From the NCBI GenBank assembly GCA_002395775.1, contig DGUV01000075.1:30677-94676 (forward strand): a stretch of DNA of 64,000 nucleotides. Reading direction: 5' to 3'. Origin of the DNA: Prevotellaceae bacterium UBA4301 (lineage in GTDB: Bacteria; Bacteroidota; Bacteroidia; Bacteroidales; Bacteroidaceae). This document shows, one piece after another, positions 7,978-61,522 of the stretch. The first letter of the stretch is position 1; every line of letters begins with the position of its first letter. Below the pieces are notes generated by a model, which was not told the DNA's origin, did not search any database, and saw only the letters and a list, made by a program, of their open reading frames with translations. Position numbers and translations under genes: made by a program.

Positions 7978-9408
7978 TTATTGGGTTTTACCCAAAATTA
8001 TATTCACCAGTGCCGTCACGTCAGCGATAGACCTACTGCCATCGTTATTCACATCGGCTGCCTTCATATCATAGTTGTCAGACTCCGTTGCCTTACCCAG
8101 AATGATGTTCACGAGAGCCGTCACGTCAGCAATAGTCTGGGAACCATCCCTGTTTACATCGCCAGCCAGAGTCGTTTCAGCCTCAATGGGCAATACCAAT
8201 TCAGCTGTACCCGTGTATTCCAGCCACGCCTTATTCGCAGGCATCGCCGTTACCGTTTCATCGGGTTTCACGAATCCCAACTTCCCCGAGGCCGTGATGC
8301 CAAGGACGTACTTTTGGGGTTTACCCTTCTCATCAACATCTATTTTGTTGTTTGCATCGAAGGATGCTCCATTCGTTGTTGTAGTACCTTGGGTTCCAAC
8401 GGAAGCTCCTGTGTACTTGTCAAAATACATAGTCCCATCGGTATTGCAGAAGAAAGTGCCTTTCAGCAGATTTGCACCTGTATAAGAGGTAGATGGTGTT
8501 GCACTAGAAGCCACAACTGTTGGTGCACCTTCGGGTACGATATAGTTCCCTGTCTTACTGCTGCATTCGAGCAGGACTGGCGTACATGCAGGAACACTTC
8601 CTTCGATTGCCTCTATCTCAACAGTGCCGTCTTCACCGATGTTCGCAACAGCATAGGCGCTCTGTATATTTCCCCCGATTGTGTAAGGGAATGCAGTGTA
8701 ATATGTTGCGTACCATTTCCCTCCATAGGAGAATGATGGATTCACATTTAATGCAGTAACTGGCTCAATGTACCACTTGTGTTTGGCATTAGAAGAACTG
8801 TAGTTCTCGGTCATACCAAAACTTCCGCCCTCATCCAAGAAGTCTTCTGTACCGATTGTAATTGTCTTTGAAATATTATAAGATGGGACAGCCCCTGTTC
8901 CAGTTAGTTTTTCTGACACACGGTACATTGTTGAAGCCCCTGTTCCCGATACTTTTTTTACTGTAGCGAAAAGGTTGTTGAAGGTACAATTGATATTACT
9001 TGTTACATACTCTCCTGTTGTAAGTTGTACTAATCCCGTGGATTGCCCTTGGATGTCATAGTTGTCATCGGAATTCTGTTTTAGGTATATAATTGTAGAG
9101 GGTAGTTCACATGCCGAGTCATCCACCATGTGAATGTCTGTCTTCAGGTATGCACCGGCACAAGATAAGGCTGCAGGAACACCATAGTCATCTGCTATTT
9201 TCACAAATAACATGGTATAACTAAACATGTGCTTGGCCCCGTTTCCCGCAGTTGCAATAACAGTTGAATAATCGAACTTATTGTTCTCCAAACTGATGTA
9301 ATTGCCCGTACCGACATTCTTCACACGGTAATAGCCCGTTCCGTTTAACTGAGCATAAGCAGTAAGCGTTATCAATAGCAGGAACGAAATTACATAAATC
9401 TTTTTCAT
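7978..9408 (-). CDS. Secreted hypothetical protein with two C-terminal dockerin-type repeats
   Basis: It has a signal peptide (MKKIYVISFLLLITLTAYA). It ends with DVNRDGSQTIADVTALVNIILGK and DVNNDGSRSIADVTALVNIILGK. The body is paralogous to the C-terminal module of the neighbouring giant protein. Confidence 0.7.
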   Translation of the reverse strand: MKKIYVISFLLLITLTAYAQLNGTGYYRVKNVGTGNYISLENNKFDYSTVIATAGNGAKHMFSYTMLFVKIADDYGVPAALSCAGAYLKTDIHMVDDSACELPSTIIYLKQNSDDNYDIQGQSTGLVQLTTGEYVTSNINCTFNNLFATVKKVSGTGASTMYRVSEKLTGTGAVPSYNISKTITIGTEDFLDEGGSFGMTENYSSSNAKHKWYIEPVTALNVNPSFSYGGKWYATYYTAFPYTIGGNIQSAYAVANIGEDGTVEIEAIEGSVPACTPVLLECSSKTGNYIVPEGAPTVVASSATPSTSYTGANLLKGTFFCNTDGTMYFDKYTGASVGTQGTTTTNGASFDANNKIDVDEKGKPQKYVLGITASGKLGFVKPDETVTAMPANKAWLEYTGTAELVLPIEAETTLAGDVNRDGSQTIADVTALVNIILGKATESDNYDMKAADVNNDGSRSIADVTALVNIILGKTQ

Positions 9409-9483
9409 ATTCTATTTTTTTACATAGCACTCCCCCTTGCCTAGGTTTCTATTCCATCGACAAGGGGGAGGTCACTAAAGATG

Positions 9484-12400
9484 TTAGTTGTTAGGCTTAC
9501 CTAAGATAATGTTAACCAAAGCAGTCACGTCGGCAATCGTTCTCTTTGTGTCGCAATTCACATCAGCAGCCCCGAAGTCAAAGTTGTCAGGATTGTTCTC
9601 CTCCGTAACCTTACCCAGGATGATGTTCACGAGTGCCGTCACGTCGGCAATACTAATCTTACCATCGCGGTTTACATCACCAGCCTTCATTAGGCGAATT
9701 TCTGTATAAATGTCGCTGACAAGGAATGCCTTGTTGGCATTTATGTTTTCCTTATCACTTGCGAAAATAGTGCCGAATTCAGCAACATTTTCCAGAACAC
9801 ATACATTCACGTCAACTTCCTTACATTCATCCTTAGAGAGTCCGAAGAAGTACTTGTTGCCGACGGTACCGGCGTTCTTCAGCATCAGGTGCTCGTACTT
9901 CTTGAGGTAAGTCTCGTAAGCACTTTCGCCGAGGATGCTCTTGGCCATGTCGAAGAGACTTTCTACCTGAGGAGTCTTAATCTTATATTCGCTAATGAGA
10001 TAATCGGGACCCTTCAGCAGGTTGTCGGTTACGGCAGAACCAGTCTTGCTGAGCTCTAATGCCTTACTTCCTGCAGTCTCCGAGACAAGCAGAATGGGTG
10101 TTTGTTCGGCAATGCTTTGGGCATCGATTTCCTCTGTCTCAGCATAACCGTAGCAACCACTTTCCCCTATGCTTGTCACCTTCATTGCCTTCACGCCCTC
10201 GGGCAGAGTATAAGCGAAGTCGGTGTAGAGTGTGGTGTAATACTTATCACCTACCTTATTCGTCTCAGGAATTTCCACCTCGAACTTGCTGACGGGCTCC
10301 ATGGTCCAAGCCGTAGAGGCATCCTTGATAGCAACATTGCCTTCGCTGATGAAGTCAACGCCGGATGCGCTGGGCACGATGTAGTACTTGAAGTTGGGAC
10401 GGATGTTCTCCACCTTGTCGATGTACTTCGAGTAGTCGCCCAGCTTGTCCTGAATCTCGGCAAAGCGCGGATGATTCTTCAGGTTGCCCCAGTAGAGCAT
10501 AGCGGTCTGATAAGCAAAGTTCCAGACATTGGCCTCGCTTGAGAGCACTTCCTCGTAGAACTTAGCCTCGTCGTCGGCAGGATTGGTCAGCGTGCTGTCC
10601 ATGCGCTCCCAGATGGTCTGGAGGCTGAAGGGAACCAGGACACTGGCACCGCTGCCATTGGTCTTCTCCAGAACCTTCTGGATGGCCTTGTTGATGAACT
10701 CTTCCAGTTCGGGCAGCTTGGCATCCACGTTAGCCTTGTTCTCGGCATAGAAGTCAACCACGGGCTTCATGCTGGGCGTGCGGCCATAGATGCGATAAGC
10801 CTCACCGTCCTTCTTCAGATAGAGGTTATAGTCGAACGACTCGTTGAACTTGTCCATGATCTTGTCATAGCCTGTGGTACCCAGCAGTTCGCCAGCACCC
10901 TCGGCATGGAGCTTGTCAACGGCCAGCTGCACGATTTCGGGCACATAGTTCATGGCCTTCTTAGCGTAGCCGGGCAGGTCAACGCCCTGTGAGCGGAGAA
11001 CCTTGACGCCCTCGGCGTCGGCATTGACGCGGATGACGGTGCCGGCCTTGCCTTCGGCATTTTCAACCAAGGTCACGGTCTTGCGACCAGCCACGTTCAC
11101 GAACTTGCCGTCGTTGGTCTTGATGTTGTAGTAGCCGTCAGGCACCTCTGCGCCAGCCTGCTTAGCCACGATGGTGAAGGTCTTCTCCACCTCGTCGCTC
11201 TTCACGCCGTCCTTCTCGGCCCAAGCCTTCACGGTAGTGGTCTCGCTGATGGTGAAGGGAGCGGAGTAGGTCTGCTCAGCACCGCCGTTCAGCGTGTACT
11301 TCACGCCCTCGCCTGCGATGGCCACCGTCAGCTCACCCTCGTACTCACCACCATCGTGGAAGATGATGGGCTGAGCAAGCTCTGCAGTATAGCTGTAACC
11401 AGTTTCTGTTTTTGTCTCAACAATAACATAACCGGCCTCGGCAGCGCTGAAGATATTGGTCTGTTTATCGGTCTGAACAGTAACACCAGTGTTCAGTGCA
11501 ACACTGTGATCGTTCTTGTCTGCGGTGAAGTCACCAAGCAGGAAGTTGAACGAAGTGCCACTTGCCAACTGGCAGGTGATGTCCTCAGTCAGCGTGATGT
11601 TCTTCTGCAGGGCAATGAACTCACCATCGGCAAGCCAACCATTCTTGAAGGGGTCAGCAAAGCTGTAGTAGCCACCATCATATCCGCCTTCTACTGCCCA
11701 GTAGTAGTGAATCTCAGAAACATAGTTTACAGGATAGAGACCGGTTTCGTCAGCGGGATCAATAGTCTCTTGATGTGAACCGTCGAGGTATCCAGCAAAT
11801 GCGGCCTTCGTGGTGTCGTCAAGATACAGTTTGTTATTCATCAGGCTTCCCCAGTTGTGGGTAATAGCACCCCATGTCTTGTCGTTGGTCTCGTAGGTGG
11901 TCTCACCAAGGAGTTTCACGACATTGCCTTCGCCACCAAGGGTAATCAGTGACTGATAGGTGCCTTCCTTGGCACTTGAAGTAATCTTGGTATCCTTCAC
12001 CTCAATGGTGTTGTTTCCACCCTCAGTTACCAGAATAGAGAAGTTATTTGAATTGCCACTCAGACCCTGGCTCTTCATCTCGCTACCCTCAATCTTAACG
12101 GTCGAACCAGCTGCATCGGGCTTCAGATAAACATTGGCCCAGCCAATCAACTTCGAATCGGTAACTGTGATGTCGGCAGGATGACCTGCAATGATAGCAT
12201 AGTGAGCCGTACCAGCGTCGTTGGTCTTGATAACACTGCCGTTTGTGACATTCAGCGTCACGCGGCCTTCATTGCTAATCGAACCGATGGTCAACGGCTG
12301 GTTATAGCTCTTACCGTTTGTTCCATCCAGTACGGTATTGTCGAGTGTGCAAGTCAGGTTGCTGGCAATCCACAAGCAAGCCTCTGCCTTGTTGCTCTTG

Positions 12401-15400
12401 ATAGTCAAGTCCTTGATGGTTACATCCAGACCTTCGCCCTCCAATACGATGGCACGCTTGCCCTGGGCAGAGGTAATCACATGATTGTTACCATTGATGG
12501 TCACACTCTTGTTTACATTCACGTTATACTTATCGCTCGGACTGGTTGTGACAGTGGTCAGCGTGAAGTCATCCACAATGTCGATGGTCTGACCAGCCTC
12601 GGCAGCATCAACGGCAGCCTGCAGTTTGCGATAGAGCTTATCACCAACCTTGGCTACAGCGCCATCGATGGTGAGGACGTTATTCAGTTCTTCATAAACA
12701 TTATTTTCAAGAGTAGCACCGTCGTTGCGTCCAACGATGTAGTCATAAGTCGTTATTTCATAATCCTTGTAGGCATTGACATCGCTCTGGATGATGGTGG
12801 TGTTCTTAACAGTGTTGTTGGTAACAGCACCGGCAGAGTAGCCTGCAATACCACCCATGTCACGATACGCCTTGATGGTCAAACCGTCAACAGTACAATT
12901 GTTGATGGTAGAACCTGCGGTAGCATAACCAAAGATACCACCTACCTTATCGCCATTGTCGTACTCGTCACCAAGTTTCTCAGGTACAGAGGTGATGGTG
13001 CCGCCAATGACGCGGCAGTTTTCAATAGTGGGACCGTTAGAGGTGTATGCTACAATACCACCAGCATAGTGGGAACTCGTCAGGTTGACGTTTTCAACAG
13101 TCAGGTTCTTGATGGTGCCGTTAACGACGGAACCGAACAGACCAGCTACAGCGTGCTTAGGAGTCTGATCCACAACCGTCACATTCTTAATGGTGTGGCC
13201 ATTGCCGTCGAATACGCCATCGAACGACTGACCGGAATAAGCCACCAGATTGCCAATAGGCGTCCAGTTCTCCTCACCGCTCAGATCGAGGTCAGCAACC
13301 AGCAGAACATTCTTGCTCGTAACAGTTTTGTCAGCAGTATTCACTGCATCGCGGAAGGCCTTCAGTTCTTCTACATTTGAAATACGGATGGGAACATCAA
13401 CTGTTGTGCAGTAGCCACTATAGGTGGCAGGAGTACCGCCTTCCCATGTGATAGAAACTGACGAGAGATACAAAGCACCACTATTAGAACGAATACCAAC
13501 ATAAGCATAGTCGCCATCGAATGTTACAGTTCCGGTTTCAGTAAGTGAACCAATCTTTGTACCCTGATTGCTATTACCATCGGTAGCATACAAATCTGAT
13601 GCTACAGTGTAAGCGGTGTTAGAGCCATAAATGTCTATCGTATTTGAACCACTTTCAACAGCAATGGCTACACTCTTGACCTTACCACCTGAAGTCGTGC
13701 TTACAATACCGCTATTGCTATTCTTCGAACGCAACTGAATAGCACCAGTTGAATTTTTAGCTGAGTTTCCTGCATAAACAGCATTTGATGTCTTTTTGAC
13801 ATTTGAGAAATCAGTATATGTTGTTCCTGTTGCTACAAGGTCTGATGCGGTAATCTCGTCCGTTACTTCGGTTACACTACCCTCTGTATCCGCTGTTGCA
13901 AACACAGCATAATACTTCAGGTCACTGGTGGCCATGGTAGCGGAAGTAACGAAGGTGGGAGCCTCATCGATCTCGCCGTCAATGGCCTCTGCTACCCAAC
14001 CTACGAAGGTCTTACCTTCGATGGCTTCGGGAGCGGCAGGGAACTCAACGGCTGCATCCTCAAGGGCAGTGGTCATGGTCTCCTCGCCATTAACGCTCCA
14101 AACAACATTGTGTTCGGGAATCTTCTCGAAGTTGATTGTTACGGTGCAGTCGCTGGCAGGAGTTACAGTGAAGATATTGCCTTCCTGGGAAACAGTTGCT
14201 TCACCACTACTTACGGTGTACGCAGGATTGGCGAAGCGATAGCCTTCAGCTGGAGTAGCAGTGATAACTTTGCCATCAATACTTACCGTTCCGCCCTCTG
14301 AAGCCTGAGGCTCTACGGTCCAAACCGCATCAACAACGGTCAGGGTATAGCTGGCAGGTGTTGGGGTATGGTATGCAGAAGTACGTGCGCCACTGGCTGT
14401 GATGGTGGTTTCACCAAGACCCACGAGCGTAACAGTGCCGTCGCTGGCTACGGTTGCCACATTGGTGTTAGAGCTTTCGTAAACAACAGTTCCGTCATAT
14501 TCGCCCTTGATTAACTCAGGAGCCGTGAAGCCCTTGTTCAGCGCAACCTCAAATTCCGTTTCGTCGCCGAATGAGAAGGTCACGTCCTTATGGTCGTTAG
14601 AAATAAGTTTGTTGTTTGCATCCAACTCATAGGTTGAGTTGTATTTCTTTAAATCGCCATAAATAACAACCTGGTCTCCAACCTCAATGTTATTCTCTGA
14701 AGTGAATTTGTCTCCATTATAGCTCTTGCCACGATAGGCTTGCAACTGGTCAGCCGTGGTTGAGCCATCAACAGAAATATTGTAAGAGATGTTACCGTAT
14801 TGCGAACTATATGCAGTTACAATCTCAGAAACAATACCCTTCACATAAACACCTGTCAGCCCCGTTCCTGCATCAATAACTGCACGAGCCTCTGCAACAG
14901 TATAAGGCTTTTCGGCACTACCATCGTTTGCATTGGGGTCTCTTGCTACGTTAAGCGTATAACTTGCAGATGCGCTATTATATTCATCATTGCCTGCGAA
15001 GGTGGCGGTGATGACAGTGGTGCCAGCAGCAACGAGGGTCACTGCACCAGTCTCTGCATGTACAGTAGCAACACCTTCGTTGCTGCTTGAATACGTTATG
15101 CCTGTTACAGTAGGATCAGCAGTTGCCGCGGGTGCAGTGAATTCCGAACCCATTGTGGCTTCGTATGTAGTCTGAGGGAATGAGAGGGTAACGGGAGTCT
15201 TCATTGCAGTAGGTTCTGCAATAGAAATTGGGCCAACACCAACATTAGCTCCCTTTGTAAAGACTAACCGCACATATCTGTCGGCAGCATCAAAATCCTT
15301 AGAGGTCGCAAGCTCCATTGTTGAATTCTGGCTCCCGGTGATAGCTAATGTCTCTAACTCTGTAAATGTCTCCCCGTCAGAAGAATGTTGAACAGAAATA

Positions 15401-16179
15401 GAAGATTCAGTAGCACCGCCTATCATTTTAACACCAATAGTCACTTTGCCAGGCTGACCGTCAGTCTTGATTTGGATATAATCGCCGGTACCATCAAACT
15501 TTATATAATATGGAGCATTTGTTGCCGAATAATCGGAACCTAAACTATTAGTAGAAACACCTGTGAGAGCTTTAAAGCTAGCACTTGTACCGCCATCCCA
15601 TGTGAAAGGCAAAGTTGCATAATCTATTTGGGGCGTGTCACCTCCAGTAGATTCATAAGTATAAGATATATTAAATACACAGACTCCTTTCGATATATTA
15701 GTTACGGTTACTGTTAAAACCTTGCCCGTTGCATGTTGATTGGAAGTTACAGTAACATCATTCGTTCCATTTAAACTACCAGTGCCGACTGATGTCTCAC
15801 CAACCTTCAGTGTAACGCTACCAGCAGTTCCACTGAACCCCCCGAACTTAGCACTCATAGATGTAATATTAACATCCGAAGGCAAAGTTGTAGTAAATGT
15901 TATGCTTGTAGCAGGGCTTTTTGAAGAGCCCACCTGTGAATACTGTACCCCGCTTCCTGATACTTTCCCTTGAGTAAACGAAGTGGTACCTACTGTTGTA
16001 ATAGTCCAAGAGTTGTTTTTACTATCGCTACCAGTAACAGAGGCTGCATTAATTTTCACATTATCATTGCCAAACGTAATGGTGCCAGTTTCATCCGCCC
16101 AGAGATTTCCTCCAGCTCCTATAAGCATAAGCATCATGAGGAGCCATGATTTAAGATTTAAGTAAAATTTTGTTTTCAT
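9484..16179 (-). CDS. Giant secreted multi-domain protein with Big_2-like Ig domains, a GLUG/beta-helix region, a CHB_HEX_C-like domain and a C-terminal dockerin pair
   Basis: 2231 aa ORF with a signal peptide. It contains repeated Ig-like segments (ATVHAETGAVTLVAAGTTVITATFAG...) and GGIVAY/GGIFGY/GGIAGY GLUG-like motifs in a beta-helix-like stretch. It ends with DVNRDGKISIADVTALVNIILGK and DVNCDTKRTIADVTALVNIILGK. Confidence 0.8.
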   Translation of the reverse strand: MKTKFYLNLKSWLLMMLMLIGAGGNLWADETGTITFGNDNVKINAASVTGSDSKNNSWTITTVGTTSFTQGKVSGSGVQYSQVGSSKSPATSITFTTTLPSDVNITSMSAKFGGFSGTAGSVTLKVGETSVGTGSLNGTNDVTVTSNQHATGKVLTVTVTNISKGVCVFNISYTYESTGGDTPQIDYATLPFTWDGGTSASFKALTGVSTNSLGSDYSATNAPYYIKFDGTGDYIQIKTDGQPGKVTIGVKMIGGATESSISVQHSSDGETFTELETLAITGSQNSTMELATSKDFDAADRYVRLVFTKGANVGVGPISIAEPTAMKTPVTLSFPQTTYEATMGSEFTAPAATADPTVTGITYSSSNEGVATVHAETGAVTLVAAGTTVITATFAGNDEYNSASASYTLNVARDPNANDGSAEKPYTVAEARAVIDAGTGLTGVYVKGIVSEIVTAYSSQYGNISYNISVDGSTTADQLQAYRGKSYNGDKFTSENNIEVGDQVVIYGDLKKYNSTYELDANNKLISNDHKDVTFSFGDETEFEVALNKGFTAPELIKGEYDGTVVYESSNTNVATVASDGTVTLVGLGETTITASGARTSAYHTPTPASYTLTVVDAVWTVEPQASEGGTVSIDGKVITATPAEGYRFANPAYTVSSGEATVSQEGNIFTVTPASDCTVTINFEKIPEHNVVWSVNGEETMTTALEDAAVEFPAAPEAIEGKTFVGWVAEAIDGEIDEAPTFVTSATMATSDLKYYAVFATADTEGSVTEVTDEITASDLVATGTTYTDFSNVKKTSNAVYAGNSAKNSTGAIQLRSKNSNSGIVSTTSGGKVKSVAIAVESGSNTIDIYGSNTAYTVASDLYATDGNSNQGTKIGSLTETGTVTFDGDYAYVGIRSNSGALYLSSVSITWEGGTPATYSGYCTTVDVPIRISNVEELKAFRDAVNTADKTVTSKNVLLVADLDLSGEENWTPIGNLVAYSGQSFDGVFDGNGHTIKNVTVVDQTPKHAVAGLFGSVVNGTIKNLTVENVNLTSSHYAGGIVAYTSNGPTIENCRVIGGTITSVPEKLGDEYDNGDKVGGIFGYATAGSTINNCTVDGLTIKAYRDMGGIAGYSAGAVTNNTVKNTTIIQSDVNAYKDYEITTYDYIVGRNDGATLENNVYEELNNVLTIDGAVAKVGDKLYRKLQAAVDAAEAGQTIDIVDDFTLTTVTTSPSDKYNVNVNKSVTINGNNHVITSAQGKRAIVLEGEGLDVTIKDLTIKSNKAEACLWIASNLTCTLDNTVLDGTNGKSYNQPLTIGSISNEGRVTLNVTNGSVIKTNDAGTAHYAIIAGHPADITVTDSKLIGWANVYLKPDAAGSTVKIEGSEMKSQGLSGNSNNFSILVTEGGNNTIEVKDTKITSSAKEGTYQSLITLGGEGNVVKLLGETTYETNDKTWGAITHNWGSLMNNKLYLDDTTKAAFAGYLDGSHQETIDPADETGLYPVNYVSEIHYYWAVEGGYDGGYYSFADPFKNGWLADGEFIALQKNITLTEDITCQLASGTSFNFLLGDFTADKNDHSVALNTGVTVQTDKQTNIFSAAEAGYVIVETKTETGYSYTAELAQPIIFHDGGEYEGELTVAIAGEGVKYTLNGGAEQTYSAPFTISETTTVKAWAEKDGVKSDEVEKTFTIVAKQAGAEVPDGYYNIKTNDGKFVNVAGRKTVTLVENAEGKAGTVIRVNADAEGVKVLRSQGVDLPGYAKKAMNYVPEIVQLAVDKLHAEGAGELLGTTGYDKIMDKFNESFDYNLYLKKDGEAYRIYGRTPSMKPVVDFYAENKANVDAKLPELEEFINKAIQKVLEKTNGSGASVLVPFSLQTIWERMDSTLTNPADDEAKFYEEVLSSEANVWNFAYQTAMLYWGNLKNHPRFAEIQDKLGDYSKYIDKVENIRPNFKYYIVPSASGVDFISEGNVAIKDASTAWTMEPVSKFEVEIPETNKVGDKYYTTLYTDFAYTLPEGVKAMKVTSIGESGCYGYAETEEIDAQSIAEQTPILLVSETAGSKALELSKTGSAVTDNLLKGPDYLISEYKIKTPQVESLFDMAKSILGESAYETYLKKYEHLMLKNAGTVGNKYFFGLSKDECKEVDVNVCVLENVAEFGTIFASDKENINANKAFLVSDIYTEIRLMKAGDVNRDGKISIADVTALVNIILGKVTEENNPDNFDFGAADVNCDTKRTIADVTALVNIILGKPNN

Positions 16180-16374: not shown

Positions 16375-16650
16375 TTATTTGTCATCGTAGTGACCATAGG
16401 CCATGAGGACTAAGACTATTACTTCCGTATCCTTAATGCGGTAGACCAAACGATGTTTCTTCGTTATCTGACGGCTCCACCGACCTCCGGGTTCTCCCTT
16501 CAATGGTTCAGGGTGCCCTGTGCCAGTCTTGGGATGCATCTTCAGTTCTTCAATGAAACGAAGTGCCTTCTGAAACGCTTTAGGTTCGGACTTAGCCAAG
16601 CGAACGAGGTCTTCTTCAGCCTGCTCCGTAATCTCAATGCTATATATCAT
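16375..16650 (-). CDS. yoeB: Type II toxin, Txe/YoeB family
   Basis: MIYSIEITEQAEEDL...KHRLVYRI...VIVLVLMAYGHY matches the YoeB/Txe signature. The ATG at 16650 overlaps the upstream antitoxin ORF by 11 nt. Confidence 0.85.
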   Translation of the reverse strand: MIYSIEITEQAEEDLVRLAKSEPKAFQKALRFIEELKMHPKTGTGHPEPLKGEPGGRWSRQITKKHRLVYRIKDTEVIVLVLMAYGHYDDK

Positions 16651-16885
16651 AACCACGACGCTTCAAATAATCAGCCACATTCTCCTCGTGCAACATTGCA
16701 TGGGATTCCCCTTGCTCCGCCTCATCGAGACGGGCGAAATACTGGGCCTTTGTCATCAGGGTGGGGTCTGCCTCCTTCTCTTCCTCAAAAGAGACGAGCC
16801 GCTCTGCCAACCACTTGCGGTTACGACGCGAGAGGGATAGGCTCTTCAGGAACTCCCACAGATTGTTCATTGCTTTGGTTGTCAT
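16640..16885 (-). CDS. Putative cognate antitoxin
   Basis: 81 aa ORF (MTTKAMNNLWEFLKSL...) overlapping the toxin start. The first in-frame ATG was chosen as the start. The family is not recognised. Confidence 0.6.
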   Translation of the reverse strand: MTTKAMNNLWEFLKSLSLSRRNRKWLAERLVSFEEEKEADPTLMTKAQYFARLDEAEQGESHAMLHEENVADYLKRRGYDI

Positions 16886-16948
16886 GATATAGGTATTTTC
16901 GGTATTACACAACGCAGTTACGCGCGCACAATGTGCACGCATGGAAAG

Positions 16949-16956
16949 CAAAGGTA
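16949..16956 (-). promoter_or_regulatory. -7 promoter box TACCTTTG for the toxin-antitoxin (TA) operon
   Basis: The reverse complement of caaaggta matches TAnnTTTG. A palindrome, gcacattgtgc, lies between the box and the ATG and could be an operator. Confidence 0.45.
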
Positions 16957-19332: not shown

Positions 19333-19441
19333 TATTGGGAGTTATGTGGGGAGTTATATTGGGAGTTATATTGGGAGTTATGTGGGGAGTTATGTGGGGA
19401 GTTATGTGGGGAGTTATTGTTCACTGGAGTTATGTTGAGAC
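19326..19441. repeat. 12-bp tandem repeat (GGAGTTATRTKG), 7 units plus 2 degenerate units
   Basis: Units start at 19326, 338, 350, 362, 374, 386 and 398. Degenerate units start at 19410 and 19426. The array overlaps the last codons of the four-helix-bundle ORF. Confidence 0.9.
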
Positions 19442-19812
19442 TTGGCGGTAGAGGCCGAGGATTTCTCTCTTATTCCCTTGCAATAGGCATTAAGGTATAC
19501 GCTAGCACCTTCAAGAGAGTGATTGAGTTCTTCATGTTCTTCAGAACTAATGTAATCCAGATCGCGAGAAAGCATAATATAAAAACGACATTCTTCCAAA
19601 CTGCCTTGGGCAATGTTAAGGAAACGAAGTTTATCAGCTATGCTGAGCTTTTTATATCCTTCGGCAATATTAGCCGTTATTGATACGGCAGCTCTTTGGA
19701 ATTGTGACGCAAGACCATAACGCTCATAATCTGGGAATTTACGAGTTACTTTGTAAGTCATTAGCACAAACTCATAAGCCTTCTGCCATGCAATTATATC
19801 CTTGAATGTCAT
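19414..19812 (-). CDS. Four-helix-bundle protein (23S rRNA intervening-sequence protein / Avd-like family)
   Basis: 132 aa with WQKAYEFVLMTYKVTRKFP...RAAVSITANIAEGY...LNIAQGSLEE, the family signature. Confidence 0.85.
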   Translation of the reverse strand: MTFKDIIAWQKAYEFVLMTYKVTRKFPDYERYGLASQFQRAAVSITANIAEGYKKLSIADKLRFLNIAQGSLEECRFYIMLSRDLDYISSEEHEELNHSLEGASVYLNAYCKGIREKSSASTAKSQHNSSEQ

Positions 19813-30295: not shown

Positions 30296-30976
30296 CTACT
30301 GCTGACGTGCCTTCTCCACCAGACGGCGGCCCAGCTCGAAGGCATTCTGCAGGTCGATGGGGAAATGTTCGTCACGATAGCGGCGCTTGTCCTCCTCGGA
30401 GAAGAGGTTGAAGTCGTAGCGCGAATAGTCGTTGAACTGATAGGTGTTGCAGGCATAGAGCATCTCGCTATAGCCATAGATGTCGGCCATCACCTTCGTG
30501 TTCTCCTCCAGTATGGGGGGATAGCCTATCTGGCGCATGTAATCCTGAGGACAATTCATGGTGAAAATCATTGCGGTGGGAATGACCTTGTCCCGCAAAG
30601 TGATGTGTTTGCCATTCTCATACAGATACGTACCGATGGGGAACAGCAGACGCTCCATGAAGGAACGCAGTTCGCCTGTGGGATAGCTGTAATAGACGGG
30701 CGAACCCAACACGACGACATCGGCCTGGCGCATGCGTTCCAGCACGGGGCGCAAGTCGTCCTTGATGACACAAACGCCGTTGCACTTCGAGTTCTTCAGC
30801 TTGCAGGCGAAGCAACTCTTACAGCCCTTAAAGTCAATGTCATAGAGATGAATCATCTCGCACTCGGCCCCAGCCTCCTGGGCACCCTTCATGGCACTAT
30901 CCAGCATCAGGAATGTGTTCTTGGTCTTGCGTGGACTGCCGTTCACGAAGAATGCTTGCAGTTTCTTTTCTTCCAT
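30296..30976 (-). CDS. Flavodoxin-like fold / NADPH-dependent FMN reductase family iron-sulfur flavoprotein
   Basis: [17 protein letters not shown]... with a cysteine cluster (CKSCFACK...C) and VLGSPVYY. Confidence 0.7.
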
Positions 30977-55764: not shown

Positions 55765-55937
55765 AAGGAACTTGTACGGCTAAAGTTCAGGCTCGGTGTT
55801 CACGTCACCAAAGAGACCACCATATGGATAGTAATGCGTCACCTGCTCTATCTCTCCGTCCTCGCTGACCACGACGCGATTATCGCCGAGATGGTCACGA
55901 CAATAGTAGTGGAAGTGGGATGTGTATGGGATATATG
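55765..55937 (-). repeat. Rhs/YD-repeat fragment, copy 1 (truncated by TAG)
   Basis: Encodes YIPYTSHFHYYCRDHLGDNRVVVSEDGEIEQVTHYYPYGGLFGDVNTEPEL then a stop. Copy 3 has CAG where this copy has TAG. Confidence 0.85.
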
Positions 55938-56427
55938 CATTATTGTTCACATGGTTAATTGTGAAAGTAACATATCCTACATCAAGATTGCTAGATGCCG
56001 CATACGAAAGTGGTATACATAATAAAAGTTGTATAAGAAATAGGAATTTTTTATCCTTTCGGAGACATTTATTTAAAAAAGTATATAGAAGAAATAAAAG
56101 GTTGGGGATAACAACCGGTAAGCAGCAAGCAAAACCGAATATTGTCACAAATAATATTAGTATCACAATTGCGAACAACACCCACGAAAATTGCAGTACA
56201 ACAAACGCTCTTCCACGAATCTCAAAGCGTTCTTTCAAGCCTGATGCCGTCCACATGAGTGGGACAAATATTTTTGCAAAACAATATATTAGATGAAGCG
56301 TTATATAAAAATAACATATTATTCCGTCTATAAGAAAATCACTATCATATGCTACATGCCAGTTTAAAGCAATGTATACTAAAGATAGGAGTAATTCAAG
56401 AATGGCTATAAGGATAAATAAAATCAT
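55780..56427 (-). pseudogene. Multi-pass membrane ORF fused in-frame to the Rhs fragment (probable chimeric remnant)
   Basis: About 160 hydrophobic AT-rich codons (MILFILIAILELLL...) run directly into GC-rich Rhs fragment copy 1. The longer ORF, which starts at 56583, overlaps the upstream gene. Confidence 0.5.
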
Positions 56428-56440
56428 TTCGGTAAAAGAT

Positions 56441-56833
56441 TTATAATGAAGGGATATTCTTATTCTTTGAGCAAAACAATACAAATTGTATGGAGTCCAT
56501 TGGGCCATATACTGTATCACATTTCTTATCAACAACCCAATAATAGTATTTGTCATCGCCGTCAAAGCTCCGTCCTGCGACATTGAACCACGTGGTATCT
56601 AACATTCCCAAATGCAGATATTGCTTAGCTACTATATATCTTCTATTATGAGCGTGAGCCACTACTTCATGCGGAATATCAATTTGCTGCAACTTATTTC
56701 CATATATTGCACGTGTATTATCATCATATGTATACCCTCCCCCCAGTCTTTCTCCTGGAAAGAAATAATTTACAATAAAGGTTATCAGCACTAAAGATAC
56801 TATTACAATAAAGGTTGTCCTTATTTTTGCCAT
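56441..56833 (-). CDS. Hypothetical membrane-anchored protein (candidate immunity-type ORF)
   Basis: 130 aa with an N-terminal transmembrane helix, in the AT-rich island. Confidence 0.5.
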   Translation of the reverse strand: MAKIRTTFIVIVSLVLITFIVNYFFPGERLGGGYTYDDNTRAIYGNKLQQIDIPHEVVAHAHNRRYIVAKQYLHLGMLDTTWFNVAGRSFDGDDKYYYWVVDKKCDTVYGPMDSIQFVLFCSKNKNIPSL

Positions 56834-56874
56834 GGGAAGAGTGTTTTAAGTTTTTATTTTCATAGAGTATTATT

Positions 56875-57573
56875 TCATATGGAGTACCTTTTCCCGCATA
56901 TGCTATTCTTTTTATATTTTCGTTTTGACACATCCGCCTTATAGTAACGCAAAGATTCTTCTCCTTTTTTCATAACCATAAAATAGAAAAAATGGTCTTC
57001 CCCAAAGAAATAACTATTATCCATAATAGGTGTATAATAGTCATATGAAGATTTAATCTCGGCACATTGTTTTACAGTATCTTTATTTAGTTGATAGAAA
57101 CGATACCAAACGTATTCGTCACAGTCAAAACCTTCATGGGACACATATAGATTCTCATCCACAAGACCATAGCCAAAAATCCCTTCGCTAATGCGTTTCC
57201 CATCCGTCCTATAAACGTATGCGCGGTCCTTTATTGGGTAATATACATTTACAATATATAGGCTATCGTCATCTATCATAACTTTTTCAACATTCACCAA
57301 TTTATTTCCAAACATATCTGTACTTTCCCAATGAAAAGGTTCGCCAAAGACTTCTTTTATTGAATCTGCAAATTCATTCATAAATGATTGCATTATTAAG
57401 ACTTTTTCATCGCATCTATTAAGTTGATTGACTTTATTCTTGCTCGCCTGATTATATTCTTCAATCCCAATCTCCACAAAGTCTATACCTCTTGTATGTA
57501 TTGGCTGGCAAGATGAAAAGAAGAGCAAACTGCTGACAAAAAAGCTTACAAGTACTTTTATTTTTGTTTTCAT
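56875..57573 (-). CDS. Hypothetical lipoprotein (candidate immunity-type ORF)
   Basis: 232 aa with the lipobox LLFFSSCQ. AT-rich. Confidence 0.55.
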   Translation of the reverse strand: MKTKIKVLVSFFVSSLLFFSSCQPIHTRGIDFVEIGIEEYNQASKNKVNQLNRCDEKVLIMQSFMNEFADSIKEVFGEPFHWESTDMFGNKLVNVEKVMIDDDSLYIVNVYYPIKDRAYVYRTDGKRISEGIFGYGLVDENLYVSHEGFDCDEYVWYRFYQLNKDTVKQCAEIKSSYDYYTPIMDNSYFFGEDHFFYFMVMKKGEESLRYYKADVSKRKYKKNSICGKRYSI

Positions 57574-57644
57574 TATACTTATGTTACTATTTTAGTATTA
57601 GTGAGAACCTCCTCCCATTAACTCATCAAAATGCCGTGAAGCCT

Positions 57645-57938
57645 TTATTGATTCTGATGGAATGTATTTGCAACAGCACCTCCTACTCCAGGTTTCCGCC
57701 ATTCTGCTCCATCATTAGGGGAGATGATGGGATATGTCCCTTCGGGGAGACCACCATAGGGATAGTAATGCGTCACCTGCTCTATCTCACCATCCTCGCT
57801 GACCACGACGCGATTATCGCCGAAATGGTCACGGCAGTAGTAGTGGAAATGGGATGTGTAGGGGATATATGTAAGCACCTTTACAAATCCACCACTGGCA
57901 GAAAGAATTAATGATATTACAAATAAAGCACGAATCAT
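57645..57938 (-). pseudogene. Rhs/YD-repeat fragment, copy 2, with a short divergent tail
   Basis: MIRALFVISLILSASGGFVKVLT + YIPYTSHFHYYCRDHFGDNRVVVSEDGEIEQVTHYYPYGGL + a 33-aa unique tail. The conserved DNA spans 57746..57871. Confidence 0.7.
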
Positions 57939-57949
57939 ACTATGTAATA

Positions 57950-58411
57950 TTACTCATCTTCATAGATAGAGTTAATCTGTCCTCCATTTGTTATTGGTTC
58001 TGGAGTTGTTACAACCCTAAAACTATCACATTTGATGCGAATAAAACCTTTGGGCTCATGGCAGAAGTTTAATTGAACGATGTATTCATCATCTATCTTT
58101 TTGTATATAAAGCCATGGATTTCAAGGTTGAAACACTTTTTTATTTTACATGTATCCTTCAACACTGAATTCTCTCTTAGTTCAATTTTAATATCCTTAC
58201 AATTTTGAAATTCCATGACAATAGGGTCTCCTTCCGACCAATCTATTGTAAGAGATAAAATGATGGGATACTGGGAAAAATTTACTTCCATAATTGAACT
58301 TTCATAGAAGTTTACCTTTTCAACATCTTCATTAATAAAGTATTTTCTCTGCGATTCCATATTTGTAACGATTGGCGATGCAAAGTTCCACGTTTCTAAT
58401 ATATCTTGCAA
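57950..58411 (-). CDS. Hypothetical cytoplasmic protein (candidate immunity-type ORF)
   Basis: 153 aa ORF. Its first codon is TTG and the first ATG is at 58360. AT-rich and acidic. Confidence 0.5.
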   Translation of the reverse strand: MQDILETWNFASPIVTNMESQRKYFINEDVEKVNFYESSIMEVNFSQYPIILSLTIDWSEGDPIVMEFQNCKDIKIELRENSVLKDTCKIKKCFNLEIHGFIYKKIDDEYIVQLNFCHEPKGFIRIKCDSFRVVTTPEPITNGGQINSIYEDE

Positions 58412-58560
58412 ATATTTCGTGTTTCAATGTGTTTCACAAGGGCAAATTGCCCTAGCATAAAAGTAAACTAAATATATATTTAACCTCATGATTTCATAAT
58501 GTCTTGCATCATTCCAGCAAAATTACTCATTTCTCCTAATCCAACAAATACTATTTGCTG

Positions 58561-59166
58561 CTATGCTTCATCATGTGGGATTTTTCGTACAAAGGTAAAG
58601 GATTCTGTAATTCCCATATCTATCTTTTCAAAATCTATGCCCATCCGCTTCAAATATTCAATAAGAATCTTACTGTTCAATCTGTCACGGACAAGACGAC
58701 TTTTATACAAGTTCAAATCTTCAAAATCCAAGGGATCTCCCTCTTCATAAAAAACCCAACGTGGGTCTTTATACGCAAGCACATCCCTTTCTCTACCATC
58801 AGCGCCTCCATAATGAAAACTATAGCCTTGGCTATCCCTCTCATTAGAGAATAGACATTGTACAAAACCACAATGCAATCGTCGATGCAATACATTGCAT
58901 AAAGTATACCACCCGTCTATTATAGAGGCTGTAAAGAAAATCTTATTAGGGTATGATTCGGTTTTCCAAAAACATGCTACTTCTTCAATATGATAATCAT
59001 ATGTCGGGGCGTAAAATTTACTAATATCAAAATCATTCTCTGTCAGGGAAGCACTTCCTGACAAAAAATCCGTCTCGAATAAATCTTTTATTACCTCCTT
59101 TACGTTTAGGATTTCACTATAGTCAAATACTGTAAGAGAAAACCTAAGGATATCACTCTCTTTCAT
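58561..59166 (-). CDS. Hypothetical protein (candidate immunity-type ORF)
   Basis: 201 aa, AT-rich, with no signal peptide. It lies directly downstream of Rhs fragment copy 3. Confidence 0.55.
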   Translation of the reverse strand: MKESDILRFSLTVFDYSEILNVKEVIKDLFETDFLSGSASLTENDFDISKFYAPTYDYHIEEVACFWKTESYPNKIFFTASIIDGWYTLCNVLHRRLHCGFVQCLFSNERDSQGYSFHYGGADGRERDVLAYKDPRWVFYEEGDPLDFEDLNLYKSRLVRDRLNSKILIEYLKRMGIDFEKIDMGITESFTFVRKIPHDEA

Positions 59167-59261
59167 AGATTAATTTATTAAATTTAACAAGGTCCTTTTC
59201 ATGGTAAGTCCCTATTATATTGCTTTATCACATCATCTGCCACAAAATTAAGGATAATCCC

Positions 59262-59717
59262 TCATCGGGGCAAAGGATTAACAATATTTAAATGACCATC
59301 TGGCCTACTTTGCGTCTGTTCTGTCTTTAGGTACTCCTTCATCTGTGCCTTTTCGCTGTTGCCATCCTTATCCAGGAAGTCATCGACGAAACATCCGTCC
59401 CGTTCCTTCACGAGCACCAACGCCACAGGCTGCGTTGCTGTGCAATTAGACTCCTTTCCACCATATTTATATGGCTGAAGTCCCGGTTCTGTGTTCACGT
59501 CACCAAAGAGACCACCATAGGGATAGTAATGTGTAACCTGCTCTATCTCACCATCCTCGCTGACCACGACGCGGTTGTTGCCGAGATGGTCACGGCAGTA
59601 GTCGTGGAAATGGGATGTGTAGGGGATATATGTATGTGCCCCTATAGGCAAAATCAGAGCACAGGTACATATTGCCACCCATATACTCTTCAGTTTATCT
59701 ATATTTGAGCTTTTCAT
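59262..59717 (-). pseudogene. Rhs/YD-repeat fragment, copy 3, with an 80-aa divergent tail
   Basis: ...HTYIPYTSHFHDYCRDHLGNNRVVVSEDGEIEQVTHYYPYGGLFGDVNTEPGLQPYKYGGKE... followed by unique sequence. The conserved DNA spans 59452..59632. The start overlaps the upstream ORF stop. Confidence 0.7.
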
Positions 59718-60295
59718 TGGTACTCCTCTACACTTATTCCATTGCCCTTAACATCCCATAAATAGAAACCTCCCGAAGTATCATTTACATCAAACCTGTA
59801 ACTTGGTTGCTTTATAAAGGTGGAGTCTGTGTAATAAAAGAAACACGGGAATTCATAAGGTCTTTCATCATTAGTATATTCAATGACGAAAGAATCCTTT
59901 CTAACATATTTCACTTCTTTTATGTCAAAATAATCTTCTTCAATCTTAAGAAAATCTTTAGTGATATCCGCCGTATCATATACGTTCACTACAGCATACA
60001 GATTTGTAGGAGGAATATAATATACGGTAAGGTCGCACCAATCAGCATGATTGGCAAATTCAATAAAGTCACCCTTACACTGCCTGTCTTTACTAAAACT
60101 AATTCTTTCATTTCTTTCTCCATGAAAGGGTCTATGCTCCATTTTGACATATAAATTCAAATCTGGTATGTAAAACTTTCTATGTCTTGGCCATGCCATT
60201 AGAAGTACAAAAGCCAGGAATAGCAGCACTAACAATATTACGATGGGCAGTAAGCACCCATTTATGCAAGCTTTTCTATTCTGTTCTATTCCCAT
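59714..60295 (-). CDS. Hypothetical membrane-anchored protein
   Basis: 193 aa with an N-terminal transmembrane helix (LLPIVILLVLLFLAFVLLMAW). AT-rich. Confidence 0.55.
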   Translation of the reverse strand: MGIEQNRKACINGCLLPIVILLVLLFLAFVLLMAWPRHRKFYIPDLNLYVKMEHRPFHGERNERISFSKDRQCKGDFIEFANHADWCDLTVYYIPPTNLYAVVNVYDTADITKDFLKIEEDYFDIKEVKYVRKDSFVIEYTNDERPYEFPCFFYYTDSTFIKQPSYRFDVNDTSGGFYLWDVKGNGISVEEYQ

Positions 60296-60310
60296 ATCGT
60301 TACATATTTA

Positions 60311-60565
60311 TTATTTAAATAGGGTATTCCACAAAGACTTAAATAAGCTGCGGAATGAAGATGATATATTGTTGACATTTTGTATTGTGTCAGTATTTCG
60401 ATATCCCATTTTCCAACCATAATACTCTGCATTTCCTGTGGATTTATCTTCTATGGTAAATTCTTCATTTATCTTAGACTCGTAAGCATCAAATGCCATT
60501 CTTGAAGACATCCAACTCATCCCATTAATAGCAGCAACAAAGCACAAGTACATATTGCCACCCAT
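60311..60565 (-). CDS. Hypothetical small protein
   Basis: The first ATG is at 60565 and the ORF list entry starts with TTG at 60586. Its 5' end contains the 28-nt motif shared with 59657..59684. Confidence 0.4.
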   Translation of the reverse strand: MGGNMYLCFVAAINGMSWMSSRMAFDAYESKINEEFTIEDKSTGNAEYYGWKMGYRNTDTIQNVNNISSSFRSLFKSLWNTLFK

Positions 60566-60601
60566 ATGAAATTGAGCGTTTTCCAATTCATCTTTTCTAT
60601 T

Positions 60602-61390
60602 TCATTTCCTTTTTACCCTACGGACTTTACCATTTAAGAATTCTTTTCGATTGGGAAATGCGGCATCAAAAGAGTCCATATTTGCTTTTATATACTCCTC
60701 TATTGTAAGTTCTTCTGCATCAACGGACATCCCAGAGCTGTCATCGCCACACAGATAATAGACAACTTTATAATATAGATTCTTGTTGTCATTATAGTCG
60801 AAGTGTGGATAGGGTGCGTCCATAGCAGCATGATTATAATTAAACCAAAAGACATTAATGAGTCCCAATAGAAACCTCGCTCTTTTTGCCTTGAATTTTA
60901 CAACATACATGGTGTCATTTCCCAATGCTCTTTTATCTACCAACTCGTCGAGGAAATCCTCATTCCATTCAAAATATGCATAATCATCATCTGGTTTATC
61001 TCTAAAACGGTCTCTACCATCCATATCATCAAAATAGTCTTTAGAAAATAGGTAGATGTCAGTTCGTTTAAAGAAATTATTGAAATCATATGAGACCGAA
61101 TTTACATACTTCCACACATACTGAGGTACGACGTATTCAAATCCATTATAATAGACATATAATGGCGAATTTATTGTGAGCGTGTCCACTACATACATGA
61201 GTTTATAGTAAGGATTGAGAACTCTTTCCGTACCGACATACCCAATGAGTTGGGCTTCAGCCTCCTCTTCAGGAGTCAACTTCTTCATATATGTCTTATA
61301 CTTAGAAATTCTTTTGTATCTTAATGAACCACATGAACCTAAAGTCATGAGCAATAGCCCACAAATGAGGGGGAATAAAATCTTTTTCAT
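60602..61390 (-). CDS. Hypothetical lipoprotein
   Basis: 262 aa with the lipobox LMTLGSC. AT-rich. Confidence 0.55.
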   Translation of the reverse strand: MKKILFPLICGLLLMTLGSCGSLRYKRISKYKTYMKKLTPEEEAEAQLIGYVGTERVLNPYYKLMYVVDTLTINSPLYVYYNGFEYVVPQYVWKYVNSVSYDFNNFFKRTDIYLFSKDYFDDMDGRDRFRDKPDDDYAYFEWNEDFLDELVDKRALGNDTMYVVKFKAKRARFLLGLINVFWFNYNHAAMDAPYPHFDYNDNKNLYYKVVYYLCGDDSSGMSVDAEELTIEEYIKANMDSFDAAFPNRKEFLNGKVRRVKRK

Positions 61391-61522
61391 TTTTGATGTA
61401 CTTGTCCGTTTAGAAATAATTTTTGTTTATATCTTCAAGGATGTTCCACATAATCGTCAATCCAAATCTGGATTCTCTTAATCAATTTTCCAGCCATTTT
61501 CTTGTAAATACTCTTTTGGTTT

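Follow-up and report, generated by a model that had tools for sequence, protein, structure and literature searches.

An AT-rich island of Rhs remnants and candidate immunity genes in a rumen Prevotellaceae genome: a probable decayed and detached Rhs orphan array

What kind of locus is an island in which short fragments of Rhs toxin genes alternate with small co-oriented genes, with no rhs gene beside them: a weapon, a store of spare toxin tips, a set of immunity genes or mere debris? The question is raised by an AT-rich island of Prevotellaceae bacterium UBA4301 (assembly GCA_002395775.1, contig DGUV01000075.1), which we analysed within a stretch of 64,000 nucleotides (positions 30,677 to 94,676 of the forward strand), hereafter the window, whose first letter is position 1 in all coordinates below. 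The island covers 55775..61522 on the minus strand (5748 nt), its edges being set by alignment of the sister-strain loci, whose flanks are 98-99% identical; all relatives and variants of the site are known from metagenome assemblies. We put at roughly 74% the probability that it is a detached, decayed Rhs toxin/immunity array from which all toxins have been lost and whose retained genes act as immunity proteins.

The GC content of the island is 0.360, against 0.536 for the window outside 55775-61522, and the profile falls from ~0.54 to 0.32-0.37 at ~55.8 kb and climbs back at ~61.5 kb. An earlier interpretation made from the letters and their open reading frames (ORFs), the sequence-only reading, had described an abrupt drop after the xth terminator and a recovery at a nim-like gene, and the profile agrees with it: the borders are, on one side, the stop codon of this PNPOx/nim-like gene (61523) and, on the other, the flank CAAGTTCC in front of the xth terminator. 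The site has the same neighbours in all strains, with PNPOx, an SMR transporter and a Laminin_G protein on the 5' side and xth and CotH on the 3' side. As that reading also stated, the ten ORFs of the island (A to J) all lie on the minus strand, separated by gaps of -4 to 206 nt. Pfam and NCBIfam returned a single match among them, DUF3997 in ORF I; the claim that the small ORFs have no recognisable family thus holds for most of them, but not for ORF I, which reaches the Pfam cutoff. A six-frame search of the island recovered toxin pieces, all truncated, and the tally is five toxin-side remnants, no intact toxin and six or seven intact genes.

A repeat search gave one three-copy family of 169 nt in direct orientation (55772-55940, 57706-57874 and 59467-59635), and the alignment defines a 126-nt core in copy 1 (55813-55938), copy 2 (57747-57872) and copy 3 (59508-59633), which we call the handle. 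The cores have a GC content of 0.51 and differ from one another at 7-14 positions (89-94% identity), a similarity that cannot be chance. Copies 1 and 3 have a further ~55 nt in common, encoding ..FGDVNTEP.L.PYK, and copy 1 reads TAG at 55780-55782 where the others read CAG. The sequence-only reading had already noticed three near-identical GC-rich segments and the CAG-to-TAG change, and had taken the segments for a YD/Rhs repeat stretch, an assignment now confirmed by their 86-92% protein identity to long Rhs proteins (those of the loci L090/L091 and L093, described below). ORFs D, G and J, which carry copies 3, 2 and 1, have no Pfam or NCBIfam match at E <= 1; the handle fragments escape the RHS/YD profiles because they lie just upstream of TIGR03696 and are too short. 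The homologs of ORF D, all of them short, place the repeat at the end of the Bacteroidota Rhs shell, which there reads ..YHYYLKDHLGNNRVV..EQ.NHYYPFGG..QPYKYNGKELD..YDYGARxYD..DPLAEKY..NP..IDPDG.., and the handle is the ~42-codon block YxPYTSHFHYYCRDHLGNNRVVVSEDGEIEQVTHYYPYGGL of that shell. The match to TIGR03696 (RHS repeat-associated core domain) starts at ..YYPYGG, and on NF041261 (the E. coli RHS core model) the handle falls at about positions 1150-1190 of 1261; it is therefore the conserved block immediately upstream of the TIGR03696 domain.

Scanning the 60-aa handle against species-representative genomes gave 78 loci. In the distant ones the handle homolog stands 780-1370 aa into long ORFs, with ~300 aa after it, and further short copies often lie behind, the classic arrangement of an rhs gene and its orphans. 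The closest of the 78, L010 (88%), lies at another chromosomal site, where a small AT-rich islet contains the segment twice; one of the two copies is a complete orphan module, with core end, toxin domain and a small ORF downstream. A scan of metagenome contigs for the handle DNA pattern had only 3 matches, among them L090 and L091. The long rhs gene of these two contigs is the same (at least 1222 aa; DUF6443), and its handle is 89% identical at the nucleotide and 91.5% at the amino acid level; in a second lineage (L092-L097) the handle is carried by a 2075-aa Rhs protein (L093). The L090/L091 Rhs matches Pfam RHS_repeat at 35.7 bits (cutoff 22), and the intact relatives pass NCBIfam TIGR03696 (59-64 bits, cutoff 32.5) and YD_repeat_2x. 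The sequence-only reading had made its case depend on a full-length rhs gene with a matching handle somewhere in this or related genomes, and L090/L091 and L093 supply it. The 64-kb window contains no rhs gene and no tRNA; a 2231-aa ORF at 9484-16179 was considered as an rhs gene and rejected as a dockerin-repeat surface protein. None of the 10 integrase-sized ORFs of the window matches an integrase family, the annotated flanks have none either, and no T6SS (type VI secretion system) gene was seen in the annotated parts of the window. The earlier statement that neither a full-length rhs gene nor a recombinase is visible there is upheld by these ORF and flank checks.

A functional Rhs C-terminal module has a core end, with the ..DPxG.. 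cleavage region, and a toxin domain. The window copies have neither core end nor cleavage region: all three end 0-19 codons past ..YYPYGGL, and where intact relatives read on to ..NPVNAVDPDGR and then the toxin, this part is gone. As the fragments are co-linear and on one strand, they might be taken for pieces of one decayed rhs gene split by unrelated insertions, the alternative that the sequence-only reading had itself named. Its probability is practically negligible, since the three fragments represent the same 42 Rhs codons with 7-14 mostly synonymous differences, and each is joined to a different toxin/immunity remnant that has its own intact counterpart elsewhere. In the Rhs frame, copies 1 and 3 show 11 synonymous and 3 non-synonymous differences (proportions pS 0.41 and pN 0.03), and over all pairs pS is 0.15-0.41 and pN 0.02-0.03. 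Differences so nearly exclusively synonymous point to divergence inside functional rhs genes and therefore to separate acquisition of the copies, not to duplication in place.

The handle also marks where Rhs genes exchange their ends. L090 and L091 are 99.84% identical over 1853 nt and then diverge suddenly after ..TATCCCTATGGTGGT (..THYYPYGG), past which each has its own core end, toxin and downstream gene; the homology of window copy 2 is lost 3 nt beyond this same point. Contig L004, from another sample, is identical (100%) to window 60700-57747 and then resumes from 55937 downward, with a handle that has all the diagnostic bases of copy 2 followed by the tail of copy 1, and with H-I-J not present. 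We rejected the idea that L004 reflects a k-mer assembly jump through the repeat, the longest exact run common to copies 1 and 2 at the switch being 12 nt, which is too short. The pattern therefore indicates that the H-I-J cassette was lost or never gained there, with a crossover at the 3' end of the handle. C-terminal modules are thus exchanged at a common Rhs core, in the L090/L091 switch at the handle 3' end and in L004 by recombination within the handle. Beyond the handle, diverged rhs genes no longer have high DNA identity, and it so serves as a homologous-recombination crossover point.

If the toxin side of these modules is gone, what are the genes that stayed? Among the ten ORFs, some six or seven qualify by their position as candidate immunity genes (A, C, E, F, H, I and, within J, its J' part); B, D and G are remnants or junction chimeras, and J is a fusion. 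In relatives, the genes homologous to E, F and H come directly after the cognate toxin domain, and a copy of C lies on the contig of its candidate toxin module. The best-supported orphan immunity gene candidate of the island is ORF E (58561..59166, minus strand, 201 aa, predicted cytoplasmic). Its homolog in L093 (61% identical) begins 4 nt after the stop of the main Rhs, and in L026 a 34% identical homolog has a start that overlaps the stop of an ORF of 115 aa whose product is related to the toxin tip of L093. In L113 a gene of the family abuts a remnant of the same toxin type (last 36 residues, E = 8e-7) within a 13-gene array that includes Imm-NTF2-2. The ORF E family comprises 573 cluster representatives at E <= 1e-3, nearly all of 190-210 aa, with no consistent Pfam match among 56 sampled members and no PDB sequence relative of ORF E by profile search. 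The AlphaFold model of ORF E is confident (pLDDT 93.7, pTM 0.90), and Foldseek found no PDB neighbour for it (best E 0.04, TM 0.27). ORFs A and H belong to very narrow families, of 4 and 2 clusters respectively. The suggestion that the ten ORFs may hold undescribed immunity families thus finds a case in the ORF E family, which lies outside Pfam and PDB, but applies to only ~6-7 of the ten.

ORF F (57950..58354, minus strand, 134 aa; longest reading to 58411) is likewise an orphan gene in immunity position, its 89% identical homolog in L090 overlapping the stop codon of the full-length Rhs toxin. No Pfam family was found for the C-terminal domains of L093/L026 and L090, and the profile content of the L093 Rhs is limited to RHS, YD, TIGR03696 and DUF6443, with genes of no family in the visible 2.2 kb upstream.

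ORF H (56875..57573, minus strand), a lipoprotein of 232 aa with lipobox FSSC, occupies the immunity position behind a YkuD-like toxin: in L093 (62% identical) and L112 (50%) its homolog follows an intact toxin after 14 nt. In both, the toxin domain of the Rhs module has an H..(S/T)xGC motif and a sub-threshold similarity to YkuD (E 0.0096); the toxin upstream of H has sub-threshold YkuD and DUF5675 matches only, and no PDB sequence match. In the window, ORF G and the sequence that follows it (57601..57938, minus strand, with ORF G at 57645-57938) consist of a hydrophobic N-terminus, handle copy 2 and two remnants of this YkuD-like toxin (57669-57749, residues 172-198, and 57601-57672, residues 234-256), and the stretch with the putative catalytic His/Cys motif is missing between the two. 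What the sequence-only reading took for a unique 33-aa tail of copy 2 is in fact an internal piece of a toxin domain. ORF I (56441..56833, minus strand, 130 aa, with a transmembrane anchor and DUF3997 at 25.5 bits, Pfam cutoff 25) follows H in every context seen; the order in L093 and L112 is toxin, 14 nt, H homolog and I (DUF3997), and in L112 a 150-aa J-type membrane protein comes next. ORF J (55780..56427, minus strand) fuses this multi-pass membrane protein, J', to Rhs-derived sequence (55775-55989, with handle copy 1 and the TAG at 55780-55782), the last 5 codons of the native 150 aa (..SYAAS-IYGDG*) being replaced. The H cassette is also found, at 99.7% nucleotide identity, in a 2-kb AT-rich islet near Bro-N/ANT genes, fused there to the first 22 codons of an Ank gene.

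In the left part of the island, ORF C (59714..60295, minus strand, 193 aa, with an N-terminal transmembrane anchor) is in the immunity position after a P0020-type toxin: P0020 is a complete orphan module, and the copy of ORF C (P0026) follows it on the same 2.1-kb contig. ORF B (60311..60586, minus strand) is the C-terminal third of this toxin and no immunity gene, since 60314-60559 corresponds to the last 82 toxin-domain residues of the P0020-type orphan Rhs C-terminal region (Rhs-CT; 91% identical to P0020 residues 240-321), and its N-terminus was made by the junction. A direct repeat of 27-37 nt brackets B-C (left copy 60531..60567, right copy 59648-59684), and L106-L110 have one copy of it and no B-C segment. 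ORF D (59262..59717, minus strand) is a junction chimera of four parts, namely a hydrophobic N-terminus (59634-59717), handle copy 3 (59508-59633), a Rhs extension FGDVNTEPGLQPYKYGGKE that ends in QPYKYGGKE (59451-59507) and a closing part from a DUF3828-like gene (its 3' end, 59265-59450), the last of which the sequence-only reading had described as a unique 80-aa tail of copy 3. ORF A (60602..61390, minus strand), a 262-aa lipoprotein with lipobox LGSC, is a candidate immunity gene. Its allelic variant in sister strains, A' (L102 3496-4107), has 40% protein identity to it, and the two agree in the upstream region and over their first ~44 nt, where the signal peptide is encoded, before they diverge, which suggests a recombination breakpoint inside the signal-peptide coding region. 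At the left edge, the last 14 codons of a toxin (KPKEYLQENGWKID*, 61481..61522, minus strand, with 93% identity to the C-terminal end of the orphan Rhs-CT in L010) are followed by a 5' remnant of ~19-28 codons (MAGKLIKRIQIWIDDYVEH, 61441..61497, minus strand) of the next gene; in this 132-nt spacer past the PNPOx stop, KPKEYLQENGWKID* overlaps the MAGKLIKR.. start of the partner gene, which is intact at the same site in L112 (148 aa) and as a 170-aa ORF in L010.

Some features of the Rhs modules deserve mention in their own right. At least 5 independent orphan Rhs modules have their own ATG and a hydrophobic, signal-peptide-like N-terminus fused at differing positions of the Rhs core (L010 9872-10876, L093 9142-9987, L112 688-2676, P0020, and window D 59634-59717 and G 57873-57938). 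These N-termini are perhaps leftovers of immunity-lipoprotein signal peptides, or a means of expressing or exporting shell-less Rhs tips. In L109 (10960-11130; also in P0082 and P0083) a 36-nt tandem repeat encoding DFLLHEVTQARD sits in the Rhs core end between GLDLYDF and ARQYDP, where it interrupts the TIGR03696 domain and is present in 2, 3 or 4 copies across assemblies. Tandem units of ~13 codons (PIPDRKLDVSNRV-like), open in several frames, lie just upstream of the small Rhs islet of L026 (8378-8776).

The state of the island becomes clearer when the same site is compared among strains. Several assemblies agree to 98-99% in the flanks, SMR-PNPOx to one side and xth-CotH to the other, and differ in what lies between, with six variants, so that the cassette turnover which the sequence-only reading proposed to look for is directly visible. 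The first is the window arrangement and the second (L004) is the window minus H-I-J. The third (L106-L110) has ORF A, an ORF of D type that includes handle and core end, a GH-E toxin broken by a frameshift and an Ank-repeat gene; the fourth (L102-L104) has A', a fragment of DUF3828, ORF E, a remnant of the GH-E toxin and an Ank gene that is truncated. The fifth (L111) consists of A, a handle joined to a toxin remnant, an H gene that has lost an internal part, I, J' and E, and the sixth (L112) of the 148-aa gene in intact form, a Rhs fragment of 662 aa whose toxin is intact, H', I and J'. At the right edge all variants stop at the same base of the flank. Variants three and four read ..CTAAT/CAAGTTCC.. 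there (the slash marking the junction), the window reads ..GCCGTA/CAAGTTCC.. and the intact Rhs reads CAGCCATACAAGTTCGG; the best explanation of the window edge is therefore that a deletion between two (A/T)CAAGTTC microhomologies took out the core end together with the GH-E toxin and the Ank gene.

These junctions also bear on whether the island could be a recombinase-driven, integron-like cassette array, that is, a member of rAID-1, whose repeats would be sites of site-specific recombination. The rAID-1 criterion asks for at least 2 co-directional downstream genes with a GC content of at most 41% (Ross et al. 2019, 10.1101/471110), and the island has ten co-directional ORFs at 0.360; it matches two of three search criteria, the repeats between its cassettes resemble the repeated intergenic sequences of rAID-1, several of its junctions fall within ~70 nt, and the Rhs-side junctions of window copy 1 and of the L010_b island are at nearly the same Rhs position. 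Even so we regard this origin as very unlikely: there is no XerD-like or other recombinase beside the island, in the 10-kb conserved flanks or among the tested integrase-sized ORFs, the repeats are in-frame Rhs coding sequence with synonymous differences, their 3' boundaries differ from copy to copy, and homology or microhomology accounts for the junctions. Site-specific recombination had been suggested by the two islands, which end within a few nt of the same Rhs position, and was dropped as the main explanation when the right end of the L109 type turned out to contain a microhomology of 7-8 nt, which accounts for the junction in the window. The L010 and window junctions read ..CAGCCGT/ (11970-11990) and ..TAGCCGTA/ (55775-55790) respectively; the two islands belong to different species and different chromosomal sites, and the microhomology deletion does not account for this coincidence.

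Could the island instead be a silent reservoir, storing alternative toxin tips with which a full-length rhs gene is re-armed, as for Salmonella orphan rhs modules? The handle is the recombination point of full-length rhs genes, and variants at the same site have an intact (L112) or nearly intact (L109) toxin. In the sister strain GCA_017847705.1, moreover, variant three and the main rhs array are on one 87-kb contig, the same replicon, ~42 kb apart, the array being on the side where the window ends after 2.5 kb. For the window, however, such a role has very little chance of being correct. No toxin domain survives in it, the segment with the YkuD-like catalytic motif is gone, as is the core-end/cleavage region of all three copies, and there is therefore nothing to re-arm with; recombination in direct orientation with an rhs gene 42 kb off would also delete the genes in between.

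A more serious alternative is that the island is neutral wreckage, a decaying orphan Rhs array of no present function whose ORFs are unexpressed or unneeded. Frames B, D, G and J are chimeric or truncated and show ongoing decay, gene content varies freely among strains, and truncation has reached the immunity side as well, in the 5' remnant of the left-edge partner, the DUF3828-like 3' remnant and the internal deletion of H in L111. The promoter scans gave no convincing promoter: sigma-70-type matches numbered 24 against 26.4 expected in shuffles, and the two Bacteroides-type -33/-7 matches are both inside the array (59274-59243 and 58548-58518), with none upstream of ORF A. Yet all five toxin parts are destroyed and six or seven neighbours of 130-262 aa have stayed open in stop-prone AT-rich DNA, and the same cassette genes recur at 89-99% identity in several independent islets. 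Orphan immunity arrays have also been found protective by experiment in gut Bacteroidales (10.1101/471110). The cassette gene families are under purifying selection, with dN/dS (the ratio of non-synonymous to synonymous rates) well under 1 between contexts, at 0.14-0.32 where divergence suffices (E 0.20-0.32, H 0.19-0.28, I 0.14, A 0.24). Taken together, these observations make simple wreckage improbable in our view.

Against the retention of an immunity array several points must be set, besides the chimeric frames. The dN/dS ratios record the history of each family and not selection in the orphan state, and two of them, for F (0.51) and for one comparison of I (1.19), have very few substitutions behind them. 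The immunity role of the retained genes is read from gene position only, ORF A has no known toxin partner and the fusion in J may have damaged the J' gene. As to the toxins, the resemblance of the Rhs C-terminal domains to known activities is confined to the sub-threshold likeness to YkuD, no secretion-system genes were seen near the examined rhs genes, for which short flanks only are available, and the full-length rhs genes are in the assemblies of relatives and not within the 64 kb of the window.

With these reservations, a decayed array whose immunity genes were kept would have arisen as follows. Full-length rhs genes swap modules of core end, toxin and immunity gene at the handle, which is also the site where cassettes are gained, lost and reshuffled between arrays. 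Each toxin-coding part in the window has been removed or truncated by deletions, some at microhomologies, and the genes that elsewhere follow those toxins have stayed intact, namely C, E, F and H, together with I and J' and, probably, A. The AT-rich composition may reflect acquisition from low-GC donors, the rhs contig L090 having a GC content of ~0.38. The retained genes would be expressed as immunity proteins against Rhs toxins delivered by neighbouring rumen Bacteroidales, including strains that carry the matching full-length rhs genes, and the net result would be a weaponless orphan 'polyimmunity' island whose handles may keep it recombinable with other Rhs arrays. The sequence-only reading had likewise seen displaced Rhs C-terminal/immunity cassettes with toxin remnants, and homology and gene context in the relatives bear this out.

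A more speculative extension, which we find rather doubtful, is that the handle remnants are retained as landing pads of an integrase-free, RecA-dependent capture platform. DNA with the Rhs block, from lysed competitors or from the cell's own rhs array, could integrate at a handle, as might a circle made of a cassette and one handle, and each event would add an immunity gene. If this were true, polyimmunity islands would grow from toxin cassette arrays by repeated capture followed by toxin loss, and the intact L112, the frameshifted L109 and the remnants-only window would show this path directly at one site.

Elsewhere in the window we noted a few features apart from the island. Positions 7978-16179 form a lower-GC stretch (0.43-0.53) with two surface proteins, the 2231-aa one mentioned above and another of 476 aa, both of which end in two dockerin-like repeats (GDVNRDG..IADVTALVNIILGK). 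A 361-aa ORF at 6636-7721, with no Pfam match at E <= 0.001, has a ..IMPDHIHGILFV.. motif reminiscent of IS200/REP-associated Y1 transposases and a proline-rich TPQTQPT repeat. From their sequence alone, 16375-16951 may encode a toxin-antitoxin-like pair (a RelE/ParE-type C-terminus ..HRLVYRIKDTEVIVLVLMAYGHYDDK and its upstream partner) and 19414-19812 an ORF of putative four-helix-bundle type, both housed in a lower-GC patch at 16-20 kb.

How does the island compare with known systems? Orphan rhs-CT/immunity modules, which are displaced C-terminal tips, reportedly lie downstream of enterobacterial rhs genes, a layout said to have been described by Jackson et al. in 2009, Poole et al. in 2011 and Koskiniemi et al. 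in 2014. Like these, the island is a strain-variable array built of units of Rhs core fragment, toxin and immunity gene, in which the core provides homology for recombination, and relatives such as L091, L093, L033, L044, L078 and others have the classic layout of main rhs gene and orphans. Unlike them, it is detached from the rhs gene (~42 kb in the sister strain), its toxins are deleted and the core end with the cleavage motif is gone; its host is a rumen Bacteroidales, and many modules in its lineage have their own ATG and a hydrophobic N-terminus. No orphan module of the 64-kb window stands directly downstream of a full-length rhs gene, and with no rhs gene adjacent the island is therefore not a classic rhs locus. 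Orphan cdiA-CT/cdiI modules are displaced pairs of toxin tip and immunity gene that keep a short conserved upstream stretch allowing homologous recombination. The island resembles them in its displaced toxin/immunity units and their recombination-enabling upstream stretch, but there the scaffold is the CdiA filament and not the Rhs shell, and those modules usually retain the toxin domain.

In other respects the island is closer to immunity arrays. Polyimmunity loci, which are by definition 'never interrupted by toxin genes or toxin cassettes', have been read as pre-emptive defence (Zhang et al. 2012, PMC3482391). The island has their tandem, co-oriented, tightly spaced genes of unrelated families, which vary among strains within the species and for which an immunity role is suggested by position, and a member of the ORF E family occurs in such an array with Imm-NTF2-2. 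In contrast to them, it has no adjacent XerC/D and no named Imm family, and its genes are separated by five vestigial Rhs/toxin fragments, none an intact toxin (the L112 variant does have an intact module), so that it would seem to depart from the definition. With rAID-1 it has in common that it is a low-GC, co-directional, horizontally acquired array of orphan immunity-type genes in Bacteroidales with repeats between genes. It differs in that the defining 5' XerD-like recombinase was not found, and it therefore fails the rAID-1 definition; its repeats are Rhs coding remnants and not intergenic motifs, and homology of its genes to known T6SS immunity genes is not established. The resemblance to acquired interbacterial defence (AID) arrays which the sequence-only reading had pointed out is thus real for GC content, gene direction and repeats, but does not extend to the recombinase.

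The locus falls into an already known class of bacterial defence loci, midway between an array of weapons and one of immunity genes alone, and judging from its remnants and relatives it is a decayed, detached Rhs orphan array that now resembles a polyimmunity island. It bridges two categories of the literature, the polymorphic-toxin cassette arrays and the toxin-free polyimmunity or AID-type islands, with intact-toxin (L112), frameshifted (L109) and remnants-only (window) states documented at one site in near-identical strains, and with junctions that show how these states interconvert, by homologous recombination at a conserved Rhs block and by microhomology deletions. It also yields four candidate toxin/immunity pairs, in which E is matched with the C-terminal domain of L093, F with L090, H with the YkuD-like domain and C with P0020, and at least one widespread immunity-type family of ~200 aa, with 573 cluster representatives and a confident predicted fold, and it extends the biology of orphan immunity from human gut Bacteroides to rumen Bacteroidales.

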